Of a DNA stretch of 64,000 nt, positions 34,876 to 62,508 are shown piece after piece. The DNA comes from Escherichia phage 4E10. How positions within the stretch are numbered: the stretch's first letter is position 1; each line of letters begins with the position of its first letter. Where the stretch lies: the sequence record OQ689735.1; one strand, 5' to 3'. The notes below the pieces were generated by a model. The model did not search any database. It saw only the letters and a program-made list of their open reading frames with translations, and was not told the DNA's origin. The translations under genes and the position numbers were made by a program.

Positions 34876-34911
34876 ATACCAAAAAGCCCCAACCTTTCGG
34901 TCGGGGCTAAG
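34876..34911. repeat. 36-bp perfect direct repeat, copy 1
   Basis: ATACCAAAAAGCCCCAACCTTTCGGTCGGGGCTAAG, identical to 35435-35470. Confidence 0.85.
34880..34908 (-). terminator. Rho-independent terminator (repeat copy 1), with a second hairpin at 34858-34873
   Basis: Minus strand AGCCCCGACC-GAAAGG-TTGGGGCT followed by TTTTTGG. Confidence 0.65.
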
Positions 34912-34915
34912 AATG

Positions 34916-35389
34916 TTATTTGATTTGTTTAGCAGACCAAATGCGGTCTTTAATAATTTTTTGGATGTCTTCAACATACTCAAGAGAGTGAGCATGTGGG
35001 TTATCTTTGAAACTATAAGCACGAGCTAGCTTTTGGCCTTCAGTTTTGATTACTAAAAGCTCTTTAAGGATAGCTTCATATTTGGAGATAATTCCTTTAA
35101 CAATATTTTTTTCTTGTGCAGCTTTAGGATCTGCTTTAGGAGCAGGTTTACCCGAAGCCTTTGCAAAAGCAGCGCCAGTAGCAACTAGACTTTTCCAGGC
35201 CATACTAACCGCATTTCCTGTAAATCCTTCTGCTTTCATGTCGCGAGCAAATTGGAATCGCGATTCGTCAGAAGCATCTTTATAAGAATATTTACCCGCT
35301 GCAATGGCTGCTTTTGCAACAGCTTGAATTTCGGTGCTAGATGCTTCATTTAACACCGCTTCATTTAAAAATTGAGTATATGATTTCAT
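34916..35389 (-). CDS. Internal-protein-like protein with capsid-targeting-sequence-like N-terminus
   Basis: N-terminus MKSYTQFLNEAVLNEA resembles the capsid targeting sequence of ipI (MKTFKEFTS) and of 29587-30060; Ala/Lys-rich; late promoter upstream and terminator downstream. Confidence 0.6.
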   Translation of the reverse strand: MKSYTQFLNEAVLNEASSTEIQAVAKAAIAAGKYSYKDASDESRFQFARDMKAEGFTGNAVSMAWKSLVATGAAFAKASGKPAPKADPKAAQEKNIVKGIISKYEAILKELLVIKTEGQKLARAYSFKDNPHAHSLEYVEDIQKIIKDRIWSAKQIK

Positions 35390-35429
35390 CTTATTTCCTG
35401 TTTTAATTCGTGGATTTAATATACTACTA

Positions 35430-35437
35430 TATTTATA
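35430..35437 (-). promoter_or_regulatory. Late promoter for the gene at 34916-35389
   Basis: Minus-strand TATAAATA about 40 nt upstream of the ATG, immediately after a terminator. Confidence 0.55.
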
Positions 35438-35470
35438 CCAAAAAGCCCCAACCTTTCGGTCGGGGCTAAG
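35435..35470. repeat. 36-bp perfect direct repeat, copy 2
   Basis: Identical to 34876-34911; the pair flanks the gene at 34916-35389. Confidence 0.85.
35439..35466 (-). terminator. Rho-independent terminator (repeat copy 2) closing the candidate ncRNA locus
   Basis: Identical hairpin and U-tract to copy 1. Confidence 0.65.
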
Positions 35471-35776
35471 CCTTGCGGCAACCTTGTCGGGGTTCCACCT
35501 GCTAAGGCAAGTGTTTGTACGAAACGCCGGGATTCGAACCCGGTTATTAAGCAGTTGACGCTACTCAATATTTTTAAAAGGCCATATCTCGACCATATCC
35601 GAACGTTCCGTCAAAAACGCTACTCGACTTACGGCAAAGATATTTCCTCGAATCGATAATTCGGTGCGCCGTTTCTGCTGTGATGTAAGAGGGCATCAAT
35701 AAACGCAAAGATTATTAACGCAATTCCTTACTCAGGGAACATCAGTCCGACGACTTACCGGTAGCGACCCGGTTTC
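35471..35776 (-). ncRNA. Candidate stable structured RNA locus (tRNA-like T-arm and acceptor elements); possibly analogous to T4 small stable RNAs
   Basis: 306 bp with no ORF of 60 aa or more on either strand, between a CDS stop and a terminator; minus strand contains CCGGG-TTCGAAT-CCCGG followed by CGTTTCG, which can pair with CGGAACG about 60 nt upstream. Confidence 0.35.
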
Positions 35777-36127
35777 TTAATATTCTTTTAAAGCATCAAT
35801 CTGTTTACGGCGTTCACGCCATAAATCAATTGCTTCATACGCGGATTCAGCATTTCGAATTGGACGGCATTTATATAAAGACTTGTGATTTTGATATTGC
35901 GTAGATAACGGAATTTTATCTAAAAGGTCTTTACGTTCAAAGTATTCGTAACCATCTAAGCCAAATGAACGATTTTTGAGAAATTGCCAATGACCATATT
36001 CGTTTTCGACATAAACATAATCCGCGTGTTGATAAAGCAAATTAATTACACGTTCAGAAATAATAGTGTCATTGTGATTAAAATAAAATGTTAAATCATG
36101 AACTACTAAATAAACATTACCTTTCAT
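35777..36127 (-). CDS. Hypothetical protein
   Basis: ORF track 116 aa, immediately downstream of tRNA-Arg. Confidence 0.5.
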   Translation of the reverse strand: MKGNVYLVVHDLTFYFNHNDTIISERVINLLYQHADYVYVENEYGHWQFLKNRSFGLDGYEYFERKDLLDKIPLSTQYQNHKSLYKCRPIRNAESAYEAIDLWRERRKQIDALKEY

Positions 36128-36143: not shown

Positions 36144-36219
36144 TGGTCGAGGCAGTAGGGATCGAACCTACGACCTAGGACTTAGAAGGTCCTTGCTCTT
36201 CCTTCTGAGCTATGCCCCG
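36144..36219 (-). tRNA. tRNA-Arg (anticodon TCT)
   Basis: Hand-folded cloverleaf: 7-bp acceptor, D-stem GCTC/GAGC, anticodon stem AGGAC/GTCCT, loop CTTCTAA, T-loop TTCGATC, CCA encoded. Confidence 0.8.
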
Positions 36220-36223
36220 TAAT

Positions 36224-36299
36224 TGGGGTGACCGATGGGAGTCGAACCCATGACTACGAGAATCACAATCTCGAGTTCTACCAACTGAACTACGGCCAC
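36224..36299 (-). tRNA. tRNA-His (anticodon GTG); no encoded G-1
   Basis: Perfect D, anticodon (CGAGA/TCTCG) and T stems; loop TTGTGAT; discriminator C73; residue -1 is U rather than G. Confidence 0.65.
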
Positions 36300-36412
36300 A
36301 TTAATACCTACTCCAACAATCAAGATGTCTTCACACGAAATTAAGAGAAGAGTGATCAGTTCAACCCTATAATCGCGTCAAGTAGATATTAATGTGACAG
36401 TTGTCACAAATT

Positions 36413-36487
36413 TGGCGGACGTGATAGGATTCGAACCTATAACCAATCGCTTAACAGGCGATCGCTCTGCCATTGAGCTACACATCC
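36413..36487 (-). tRNA. tRNA-Asn (anticodon GTT)
   Basis: Clean cloverleaf: anticodon stem ATCGC/GCGAT, loop CTGTTAA, T-loop TTCGAAT, discriminator G, CCA encoded. Confidence 0.75.
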
Positions 36488-36491
36488 AAAT

Positions 36492-36578
36492 TGGTGGGGA
36501 GTGATGGAGTCGAACCACCCGAGTCGCAATGACAATGAATTTACAGTCCACACCGCTACCTCTACGGGATAACTCCCC
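36492..36578 (-). tRNA. tRNA-Tyr (anticodon GTA), long variable arm
   Basis: 87 nt; acceptor GGGGAGT/ACTCCCC; loop CTGTAAA; anticodon stem has two G-U pairs; variable-arm stem GTC/GAC. Confidence 0.6.
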
Positions 36579-36591
36579 TTAATTCTTAATT

Positions 36592-36666
36592 TGGTGGCCC
36601 TGGGTGGAATTGAACCACCATCTGGCGATTATGAGTCGCTTGCTTGAACCTTCCAGCTACAGGGCC
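36592..36666 (-). tRNA. tRNA with CAT anticodon (Ile-lysidine type by T4 analogy, or elongator Met)
   Basis: Acceptor GGCCCTG/CAGGGCC, loop CTCATAA, T-arm GGTGG-TTCAATT-CCACC; sits where T4 has tRNA-Ile. Confidence 0.7.
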
Positions 36667-36667
36667 T

Positions 36668-36743
36668 TGGTGCTGATTGACGGAATCGAACCGCCGACCT
36701 TCTCATTACAAGTGAGTTGCTCTACCTACTGAGCTAAATCAGC
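36668..36743 (-). tRNA. tRNA-Thr (anticodon TGT)
   Basis: Cloverleaf with loop CTTGTAA, T-loop TTCGATT, CCA encoded. Confidence 0.8.
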
Positions 36744-36748
36744 AAAAC

Positions 36749-36838
36749 TGGCGGAGGCGATAGGATTTGAACCTATGAGTCGCCGGAGCGACTGCCGGTT
36801 TTCAAGACCGGTGCATTAAACCACTCTGCCACGCCTCC
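36749..36838 (-). tRNA. tRNA-Ser (anticodon TGA), long variable arm
   Basis: 90 nt, GGAGGCGTGGCAGAGTGG...CCGGT-CTTGAAA-ACCGG; matches recalled T4 tRNA-Ser. Confidence 0.85.
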
Positions 36839-36840
36839 AG

Positions 36841-36914
36841 TCTCCATACAAGGATTTGAACCTTGGACCTCCTGATCCCAAATCAGGCGCTCTACCAAAC
36901 TGAGCTACACGGAG
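36841..36914 (-). tRNA. tRNA-Pro (anticodon TGG); 3' CCA not encoded
   Basis: Loop TTTGGGA; acceptor CTCCGTG/TATGGAG; only 2 nt separate it from tRNA-Ser, consistent with the known T4 Pro-Ser dimeric precursor. Confidence 0.8.
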
Positions 36915-36924
36915 TAAATTAAAT

Positions 36925-36998
<74 letters not shown>

Positions 36999-37003
36999 AA
37001 ATT

Positions 37004-37090
37004 TGGTGCGAGAAGTGGGACTCGAACCCACAAGGAAATCATTCCGCAGCATTTTAAGTGCTGTGCCTTTACCAATTTGACCATTCTCGC
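37004..37090 (-). tRNA. tRNA-Leu (anticodon TAA), long variable arm
   Basis: GCGAGAATGGTCAAATTGGTAAAGGCACAGCACTTAAAATGCTG...; matches recalled T4 tRNA-Leu. Confidence 0.85.
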
Positions 37091-37091
37091 G

Positions 37092-37164
37092 CTGGGAATA
37101 AAGGACTCGAACCTTTGCATCCTGGAATCAAAATCCAGTGCCTTACCAACTTGGCTAATTCCCA
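37092..37164 (-). tRNA. tRNA-Gln (anticodon TTG); 3' CCA not encoded
   Basis: Loop TTTTGAT with stem CTGGA/TCCAG; U1-A72; abuts tRNA-Leu with a 1-nt spacer (Gln-Leu dimeric precursor as in T4). Confidence 0.8.
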
Positions 37165-37261: not shown

Positions 37262-37555
37262 TTACCATTTATGATGATACATACTTACGATGCATTCAAG
37301 ACCCAAAAGATTCTTGAAAATATCATATTCAAGAGGACCTTTTTCTGTTTCAATAAAGAAATCAAAATTTACTGTATTAAATTTACGGTCTTCCTTCACT
37401 AATTTAACCTGAGAAGATGAACGGTCAATGTAAACCTTTTCAACTTCAAAACATGTTAAAATGCCATAATCATCAATCAAGGCTTTAGCTGCTTCTTGAT
37501 CATATTTATATCCATTTTCAATGGATGATACTTTCGCATAAAGAATCATTATCAA
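37262..37555 (-). CDS. Hypothetical protein
   Basis: ORF track 97 aa. Confidence 0.5.
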   Translation of the reverse strand: MIMILYAKVSSIENGYKYDQEAAKALIDDYGILTCFEVEKVYIDRSSSQVKLVKEDRKFNTVNFDFFIETEKGPLEYDIFKNLLGLECIVSMYHHKW

Positions 37556-37932
37556 CCTTCATCAACAATAGTGTGCGTATTGGCATTTACAATTTGCCAC
37601 CAATCAAAGCGATTAGAACCATAATCTGGTTTGTTTTCATTTTCTTTGATAATGTCACGGAGTTCATCTTCGGTAGCGGCTTTCGCTATTAAATCAGCAT
37701 ATCCACCACGAGGATAATAATTATCACCTGCAAAAAGTAAAAAGTTTGGTTTAATGTTATTGAACTCTTCAAGAGTAATAACTTTTCCTGACGGTTGAAC
37801 AATCTCTACATATTTATATCCCAATTTTTGAGCAGCATCTACTGCTTCAAGCAAAGTATCATGAGCCCATCCAATTTGACAACCTGGCTTTTCAGATGGA
37901 TTAGCCTGATAATCCGCATACACTTTGTACAT
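37552..37932 (-). CDS. Hypothetical protein
   Basis: ORF track 37552..37971; ATG at 37932 (MYKVYADYQ) with AAGGTG site. Confidence 0.5.
   Translation of the reverse strand: MYKVYADYQANPSEKPGCQIGWAHDTLLEAVDAAQKLGYKYVEIVQPSGKVITLEEFNNIKPNFLLFAGDNYYPRGGYADLIAKAATEDELRDIIKENENKPDYGSNRFDWWQIVNANTHTIVDEG

Positions 37933-59367: not shown

Positions 59368-62508
<3,141 letters not shown>

Follow-up and report, generated by a model that had tools for sequence, protein, structure and literature searches.

Alignment to T4 and comparative folding show that the locus at 35471-35776 (minus strand) of the 64,000-nt stretch of Escherichia phage 4E10 analysed here (OQ689735.1; the window) corresponds to the two small stable RNAs of the T4-type tRNA operon, rnaD and rnaC, together with a structured 3′ trailer, followed by a terminator. 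The whole stretch is that of a T4-like myovirus (Tequatrovirus). Both RNAs are already known from T4, rnaD as species 2 RNA and rnaC as species 1 RNA; their presence at the end of the T4 tRNA operon has been recognised since the 1970s, and they are textbook T4 features. Their occurrence in a T4-like genome is unremarkable, and it is an orphan function of about fifty years that keeps them of interest. Our explanation of the locus taken whole, comprising identity, biogenesis, fold and a function assigned at low confidence, is in our judgement very probably correct. An earlier note on this DNA had proposed a single processed stable RNA and suggested that it might correspond to the small stable RNAs associated with the tRNA region of T4. 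That correspondence was borne out by alignment with annotated T4 rnaD and rnaC, and a tRNA-like stable RNA is indeed predicted, but the locus comprises two independent RNAs and a structured trailer rather than one RNA. From 5′ to 3′, the layout is as follows.

35663-35780, minus strand: rnaD (species 2 RNA) homologue, about 118 nt, with ends transferred from the T4 annotation; its 5′ end shares bases with the stop codon (35777-35779) of an upstream 116-aa ORF
35657-35662, minus strand: spacer between rnaD and rnaC, 6 nt, GAAUUA, from alignment to T4
35518-35656, minus strand: rnaC (species 1 RNA) homologue, 139 nt, from alignment to T4
35471-35517, minus strand: 3′ trailer, not part of mature rnaC as annotated in T4; it carries a conserved hairpin, CACUUGC-CUUA-GCAGGUG (35513-35496)
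35439-35467, minus strand: intrinsic terminator of the tRNA operon, with a 10-bp stem containing 7 G-C pairs, and a T-run

Base-for-base alignment of the locus gave approximately 97% identity to annotated T4 rnaD and rnaC. In the T4 record (NC_000866), rnaD (71053-71171, 'small, stable RNA; species 2 RNA') lies downstream of the T4 tRNA cluster and is followed by rnaC (70908-71046, 'small, stable RNA; species 1 RNA'). The rnaC homologue aligned to T4 rnaC over 139/139 nt with 3 substitutions (nhmmer profile E = 2.4e-46), all of which are structure-neutral in the fold described below (C-G to U.G, an unpaired position, and U-A to U.G), and it lies on the same strand as its T4 counterpart, downstream of the tRNA cluster and rnaD and upstream of the operon terminator. 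The rnaD homologue (118 nt versus 119 nt in T4) differs by one indel and two mismatches, located at the 5′ end. A 451-nt query around the locus matched 737 phage records, with ECO95, slur02/04 and wV7 the nearest at 99.6-100% identity; the locus is present in 809 phage records, the PG7 homologue of rnaC has matches in 761, and rnaC and rnaD are annotated at the corresponding place in some GenBank records.

The order and strand of the two RNAs, their place at the 3′ end of the tRNA operon, the trailer and the terminator are all shared with T4. ARAGORN, and Rfam with its gathering thresholds, called eleven minus-strand tRNA genes at 36144-37164, placing the locus downstream of a tRNA cluster and beside a strong terminator (hairpin and T-run at 35467-35439), as the earlier note had claimed. 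In contrast to T4, where rnaD is preceded by tRNA-Arg, the 116-aa ORF (phrog_3355) lies directly before rnaD here and separates it from tRNA-Arg (36144-36219); the 5′ end given for rnaD in 4E10 is a transfer from T4, in which a tRNA and not an ORF precedes the RNA. The base after the rnaD 3′ end (35662, the first spacer base) is G here (CACC-G, versus CACC-A in T4), and in 4E10 a 157-aa ORF cassette with a second terminator copy comes after. T2L-type clusters carry extra tRNAs and two ORFs replacing segB (PMC2330249), and this is the arrangement found in the 4E10 stretch.

The absence of coding capacity, also part of the earlier claim, was upheld. The ORFs overlapping the locus are mechanical TTG-start frames of 24-50 aa, two on each strand, and none starts with ATG. 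The coding check covered the two minus-strand frames of 44 and 50 aa (35574-35708 and 35416-35568), which are what a small-protein reading would rest on; both run into stops or frameshifts in relatives, the 44-aa frame being interrupted in T4 too, so that neither is a conserved ORF. Substitutions track base pairing and not codon position, and translation of either frame into a functional protein is barely credible.

The minus-strand T-arm CCGGG-UUCGAAU-CCCGG that had drawn attention to the locus is present at 35543-35527, with CGUUUCG directly after it (35526-35520). GGTTCRANYCC, the T-loop motif, has 12 matches in the window versus 0.2 expected, of which ten are in called tRNAs, one is here and one is due to chance; this last, at 61591-61601, was rejected as a chance match inside a 610-aa ORF. 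The earlier note had paired the 7-nt strand with CGGAACG upstream. That sequence is present at 35610-35604 and could form 8 bp with one G.U, but covariation picks the rnaC 5′ end (CGAUUCG) as the partner. The note was right that an anticodon arm and a CCA are lacking: the arm at the anticodon-arm place, P5, has 10 bp and a 6-nt loop, and U-ACA is encoded after the acceptor strand. The elements of rnaC are listed from 5′ to 3′.

35649-35655, minus strand: P1 5′ strand, CGAUUCG, pairing with 35526-35520 and beginning 1 nt inside the T4-annotated 5′ end
35579-35648, minus strand: long composite arm P2a-P2b-P2c-P3a-P3b, 26 bp with a 6-nt loop, UUGACG; found independently by RNAfold
35609-35614, minus strand: loop L3, UUGACG, partner in the loop-loop contact
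35604-35610, minus strand: CGGAACG, which belongs to L3 and P3b in the supported model
35545-35570, minus strand: arm P5, 10 bp with the 6-nt loop L5, CGUCAA (35555-35560), at the anticodon-arm place
35527-35543, minus strand: T-arm, 5-bp stem and 7-nt loop UUCGAAU
35520-35526, minus strand: P1 3′ strand, CGUUUCG, followed by U-A, the annotated 3′ end

Homologues of rnaC were collected by phage-database searches and pattern scans, giving 27 distinct sequences of 138-141 nt from nine genera (Tequatrovirus, Mosigvirus, Gaprivervirus, Dhakavirus-like, Karamvirus, Kanagawavirus, Winklervirus, Tegunavirus and Marfavirus). Two acceptor models were compared on an alignment (A3) of 20 class-A sequences from eight genera, which are 139-141 nt long with a mean column identity of 91%. 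The comparative model shows rnaC as a tRNA-derived four-way cloverleaf in which the place of the D-arm is taken by the 26-bp arm and that of the anticodon arm by the 10-bp arm. The full model has nine elements (P1, P2a, P2b, P2c, P3a, P3b, P5, the T-arm and the loop-loop contact) and 54 pairs, with 95.3% of cells paired and compensatory change in 17 pairs. None of 500 shuffles matched it on any measure, and slid controls gave 37-44% of cells paired and at most 3 pairs changed on both sides. The minimum free energy of rnaC is -47.7 kcal/mol (z = -3.96), and RNAfold alone recovers the nested helices. The folding and covariation check that the earlier note had proposed thus found structural covariation in rnaC, in the 17 pairs changed on both sides.

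Support is distributed over the helices. Compensatory change was seen in 8 of the 10 pairs of P5, and within the long arm in three pairs of P2b, one of P2c and one of P3b. The T-arm is 100% paired with two compensatory pairs (CCGGG/CCCGG, CCUGG/CCAGG and CUUGG/CCAAG), and its loop is not conserved in the Kanagawavirus and Winklervirus copies (UGCAUGC, UGCAUUC), a divergence which weakens a strict tRNA-elbow mimicry model. Two further candidates were dropped: a CUUUU...GAG hairpin upstream of P5, the 3′ strand of which sits in the strongly covarying P5, and a D-loop-like role for the GG at 35594-35593, which pairs in P2c with compensatory support. Loops L3 and L5 are Watson-Crick complementary at 6/6 positions in 27/27 sequences, as UUGACG/CGUCAA in most, UUGAUG/CAUCAA in Yersinia phage TG1 and UUGGCG/CGCCAA in four Klebsiella-phage copies, so that the pairing is preserved across two independent double changes in two lineages. 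Because the loops are complementary and covary, L3 and L5 most likely kiss, which would close the body of rnaC into a compact, nuclease-resistant ring without a free anticodon; the contact could instead be intermolecular, forming a dimer. Six-nucleotide kissing-loop complexes are formed by the HIV-1 DIS and by ColE1 RNA I/RNA II, with which rnaC shares two fully complementary 6-nt hairpin loops; unlike in those systems, both loops lie within one molecule, and the contact, whether intra- or intermolecular, is a predicted one. The class-B copies (Kosakonia 305, L013 and the Klebsiella phages) have a long-arm sequence unrelated to that of class A and the same length, helices and loops, and the Marfavirus copy, also of class B, keeps this architecture and length.

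The acceptor stem is where the two models diverge. In P1, 72.9% of cells are paired; two U.U mismatches are conserved in it, and in T4-type sequences an internal alternative helix is the stronger of the two. Its third pair is A-U in 11 and G-C in 9 of the 20 aligned sequences, and in TG1 the two U.U mismatches are replaced by U-A and C-G, giving a perfect 7-bp stem. Mature rnaC as annotated in T4 extends past this stem by 1 nt at the 5′ end and by 2 nt at the 3′ end. In the competing model a class-II-like tRNA of about 95 nt would lie within the 3′ two-thirds of rnaC, with the internal ACGGAACG (35611-35604) paired to CGUUUCGU and a 45-nt 5′ leader retained. This internal helix has 8 bp in T4-type sequences, is perfect in phage PG7, the copy of which is called tRNA-Met by both ARAGORN and GenBank, and has 93.8% of its cells paired (ACGGAACG/CGUUUCGU); a weak Rfam tRNA-Sec match also spans exactly the embedded region. 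However, none of its pairs is changed on both sides, and its variable position is an A.C mismatch in 8 of 20 sequences, the same 3′ column covarying instead with the 5′ terminus (A-U to G-C). TG1 has three mismatches in the internal helix and a perfect terminal stem, the helix overlaps the covarying P3b and L3 loop, forcing it costs 9 kcal/mol (-38.7 versus -47.7), and the mature 5′ end of T4 rnaC lies 45 nt upstream of it. An embedded tRNA is, on this comparison, very unlikely.

With P1 as its acceptor stem, rnaC resembles a canonical tRNA in having a 7-bp acceptor stem directly next to a T stem of 5 bp that carries a 7-nt UUCGAAU loop, a discriminator-like U, a four-way junction and, in other genera, a location in the tRNA array. 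It differs in its length of 139 nt, the tandem U.U in the acceptor stem, and the lack of a variable loop, of a 5-bp/7-nt anticodon arm and of a D-arm with its loop GG, the Gs being paired in P2c. Downstream of the acceptor strand every copy reads U and then NCA; in the window N is A, so that UACA and not CCA is encoded, and a true CCA is found in the Klebsiella-phage copies only. ARAGORN and Rfam at gathering thresholds called no tRNA within the locus, which was the outcome of the Infernal/Rfam check proposed in the earlier note, and the best tRNA-clan match there was to tRNA-Sec (16.6 bits, E = 1.8, non-significant against a gathering score of 47). In other phages rnaC is sometimes labelled a tRNA by ARAGORN and in several GenBank records, as with the tRNA-Met of PG7.

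The tRNA-like domain of tmRNA likewise joins an acceptor stem to a T-arm, lacks an anticodon arm and belongs to a stable RNA of RNase P-type processing, but rnaC has no G3.U70 (3:70 being A-U or G-C), tag reading frame or pseudoknot ring; ARAGORN called no tmRNA, and the Rfam tmRNA match of 10 bits was confined to the T-arm. The bacterial Y-RNA-like YrlA and the MHV68 tRNA-like RNAs are non-decoding RNAs with a tRNA-like module that are processed by tRNA enzymes. They resemble rnaC as non-decoding RNAs with such a module that have no use in translation; however, no Ro-binding helix was identified in rnaC, their hosts and sequences are unrelated to those here, and no Y RNA family matched in Rfam at E <= 10. 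Even at permissive thresholds, Rfam gave chance-level matches only for both RNAs, indicating that neither rnaC nor rnaD has a curated Rfam family. No match to either RNA was found in E. coli genomes, which argues against a host homologue. A pattern scan of one genome each of 185,579 bacterial and archaeal species returned seven chance matches, none of which was kept by nhmmer; a loose gapped pattern hit 81 viral and at least 80 metagenome loci, nearly all by chance, with nhmmer retaining T4-like contigs only, and an rnaC pattern found 13 loci on viral contigs.

Given its place among the tRNA genes of other phages, the tRNA calls that it sometimes receives and its 3′ flank of U and NCA, rnaC is considered a descendant of a tRNA. 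That it might be one or more decaying, functionless tRNA pseudogenes would be suggested by the T-arm and acceptor remnants, the degenerate CCA (ACA) and the silence of tRNA finders on it in the window. This is highly improbable in view of the length of 139-141 nt and 91% column identity kept in the 20 class-A sequences, the architecture shared by class B including the Marfavirus copy, and the compensatory changes in helices that are not those of a tRNA and in the loop-loop contact; compensatory change at constant length and identity points to purifying selection on the structure of rnaC.

Judged by their distribution among genomes, rnaC and rnaD are modules that can occur apart. In Tequatrovirus, Mosigvirus and Gaprivervirus, the rnaD-rnaC pair is invariably preceded by the last tRNA or ORF and followed by the terminator. 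Phage JS98 lacks rnaC and keeps both rnaD and the trailer, the trailer hairpin being conserved even there, and Karamvirus, Kanagawavirus, Winklervirus and Tegunavirus have rnaC without rnaD, either within the tRNA array or, in TG1, at the array edge. The constant position of the pair in the first three genera, a trailer hairpin kept even without rnaC, and a non-essential region (PMC2330249) would all suit elements that act purely in cis, as scaffolds for processing, stability or termination at the 3′ end of the tRNA operon, the stable RNAs being by-products with no function in trans. However, in the four genera that lack rnaD, rnaC precedes further tRNA genes or other conserved sequence and not a T4-type trailer and terminator, the covarying 139-nt fold with its loop-loop contact far exceeds the needs of a processing signal, and the RNAs accumulate as discrete species in T4 (PMC9697503). 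A purely cis-acting role is thus unlikely.

In T4, RNase P generates the 5′ end of species 1 RNA, and the involvement of RNase P and RNase E is described in the T4 literature of the 1970s-80s. In T4 the primary transcript, a tRNA precursor of approximately 1.75 kb, spans the cluster and terminates after the species I gene, and the tRNA region is described as non-essential (PMC2330249); rnaC and rnaD were classed as late RNAs by northern blot and RNA-seq, RNAC being confirmed by northern blot (PMC9697503). No promoter motif was found directly upstream of rnaD in the window, and late-promoter motifs lie upstream of the tRNA cluster at 37503-37510 and 37811-37818. Both RNAs are probably transcribed by read-through from the tRNA cluster and the 116-aa ORF, and would be cut out of the operon transcript. 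Since the termini of rnaC form an acceptor/T-arm minihelix, rnaC may be released like a tRNA, its 7-bp acceptor-like stem stacked on the canonical T-arm presenting the geometry used by RNase P and the 3′ trimming enzymes and making it a putative RNase P substrate. The 5′ cut of rnaC, with trimming of the 6-nt spacer, would also yield the 3′ end of rnaD, 1 nt past its closing helix, and the closed kissing-loop body would account for the stability of rnaC.

The structure of rnaD was examined on 13 distinct sequences. The RNAalifold consensus has 25 pairs (97.2% paired, 6 compensatory pairs) and consists of a 5′ hairpin, an invariant closing helix formed by GUCGUCG with CGGCGCAC, and a long irregular stem; the folding energy is unremarkable (z = -1.64). 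Two of its elements vary between relatives.

35757-35773, minus strand: rnaD 5′ hairpin H1, ACCGG-GUCGCUA-CCGGU; its closing pair changes from A-U to G-C in three Mosigvirus-type sequences (L014, L015, L023)
35693-35721, minus strand: rnaD apical hairpin, a variable module with four unrelated sequence types among relatives

The swapping of this apical module between lineages is what might be seen for a target-recognition module, and both RNAs contain invariant single-stranded stretches (GUUCCCUG and CACAGCAGAAAC in rnaD, GGCCUU and an A-rich linker in rnaC), which would suit trans-acting sRNAs that base-pair with phage or host mRNAs. We nevertheless regard such sRNAs as rather a long shot: the two most conserved loops of rnaC pair with each other, the folding of rnaD is not exceptional, and T4 has no characterised trans-acting sRNA (PMC3014915).

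According to reviews, what RNAC and RNAD do is unknown (PMC3014915). Our tentative suggestion, which has a real though minor chance of being right, is that rnaC may be a non-decoding tRNA mimic that shows its acceptor/T-arm side to some factor of host or phage that binds tRNAs, acting as decoy or recruiter, both RNAs being host-dependent accessory elements that are not part of core replication. In line with an accessory role are the non-essential nature of the region (PMC2330249) and a mutation restoring an rnaD pair on strain ECOR34, described below. In a related and somewhat more doubtful proposal, rnaC, closed into a ring by an intramolecular kissing contact, might work in trans on a factor that recognises tRNAs, whether as decoy or as adaptor; examples would be an anticodon nuclease of the host or some other defence aimed at tRNAs, and enzymes that process or modify tRNAs. 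The apical hairpin of rnaD would be a second host-range determinant. If the decoy or host-range reading were true, the 50-year-old orphan RNAs of T4 would be counter-defence or host-adaptation RNAs. Testable handles are provided by the covariation-based fold of rnaC, with an acceptor stem formed by its termini and a compensated loop-loop contact, by the separability of the two RNAs, rnaC behaving as a member of the tRNA array in other genera, and by the placement of a published convergent adaptive SNP on a base pair of the rnaD apical hairpin. This SNP arose in phage BW-1 evolved on ECOR34 (position 164264, T to C; PMC12685909). It maps into the apical hairpin, where the A-to-G change on the RNA strand converts a C.A mismatch to a C-G pair, and restoration of the pair under ECOR34 selection points toward rnaD as a host-range determinant. 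The change gives BW-1 the stem that is present in a relative.

rnaC and rnaD, the homologues of species 1 and species 2 RNA, are modules that are independent of each other. Phage JS98 (locus L005, 1495-1730) retains rnaD and the trailer, the 3′ stretch that follows rnaC in the window, and rnaC is absent; rnaC is found without rnaD, among tRNA genes, in Karamvirus, Kanagawavirus, Winklervirus and Tegunavirus phages (loci L002, L003, L019-L021). The hairpin of the trailer and the adjoining GGAACCCCGACAAGGU are kept in every relative that has a trailer, JS98 included, and this conservation suggests that they act on their own as a signal for processing or stability.

Sequence elements of the RNA modules and a motif elsewhere
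35496-35513, minus strand: conserved trailer hairpin CACUUGC-CUUA-GCAGGUG, followed by GGAACCCCGACAAGGU
35704-35713, minus strand: rnaD apical loop, AAUCUUUGCG, with the shared motif AUCUUUGC
35632-35642, minus strand: rnaC P2b/P2c region, UAUCUUUGCCG, with the shared motif AUCUUUGC
61591-61601, minus strand: isolated T-loop-like motif GGTTCAAACCC, within a 610-aa plus-strand ORF (60673-62505)

Klebsiella/Marfavirus copies of rnaC (L022, L028, L034, L038) encode U-CCA 3′ of the acceptor strand, matching the canonical tRNA 3′ end; in every other copy this strand is followed by U-ACA or U-UCA. In Kanagawavirus/Winklervirus copies (L003, L006, L016, L017, L020) the T stem is retained but the T-loop reads UGCAUGC or UGCAUUC, not UUCGAAU, so not every copy needs the canonical loop sequence. 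The isolated GGTTCAAACCC was rejected as a T-loop, being a chance match inside the 610-aa ORF. A conserved stretch beginning GGTGAAATTTGGTAGACACGACTGGAATAGCTTGTTTGAAACCCTGG lies 3′ of rnaC in Kanagawavirus-type loci (L003 at approximately 1660-1800; also L004, L006, L013 and L016). Its start resembles a tRNA-Leu D-arm, ARAGORN made no call in the stretch, and it may represent a tRNA that has degenerated or been interrupted.

A convergent adaptive SNP has been reported in phage BW-1 (PMC12685909). The site (position 386 of the BW-1 locus L213, position 164264 of OR125554.1) is in the rnaD apical hairpin, where the SNP changes a C.A mismatch to C-G (CACAG-UUUUA-CUAUG to CUGUG), and the sequence of the relative L008 equals the BW-1 hairpin after the SNP. 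The apical loop (AAUCUUUGCG) has the motif AUCUUUGC in common with the P2b/P2c region of rnaC (UAUCUUUGCCG), a sharing that may be due to chance.

Features flanking rnaC and rnaD
35467-35444 and 34908-34885, minus strand: stems of the two near-identical terminator-region copies, TTAGCCCCGACCGAAAGGTTGGGGCTTTTTGGTAT
35430-35437, minus strand: late-promoter motif TATAAATA, terminator/157-aa ORF region
34916-35389, minus strand: 157-aa ORF, phrog_2280, function unknown, no Pfam
35777-36127, minus strand: 116-aa ORF, phrog_3355, function unknown, no Pfam
36300-36412, minus strand: 113-nt non-coding gap, tRNA-Asn to tRNA-His, within the tRNA cluster

Within 34885-35470, the 157-aa ORF is flanked on each side by a copy of the terminator region (TTAGCCCCGACCGAAAGGTTGGGGCTTTTTGGTAT), the two copies being almost identical. 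Because T4 has a single terminator and no ORF at this site, whereas the window has both copies and the ORF, the 157-aa ORF looks like a cassette inserted through terminator duplication. The 116-aa ORF occupies the interval between tRNA-Arg and rnaD, which is empty in T4, and overlaps through its stop codon the 5′ end of rnaD as defined in T4. PMC2330249 describes T2L-type trna ORFs, of which this is probably one. The 113-nt gap contains an inverted repeat, GTGACAACTGTCAC.
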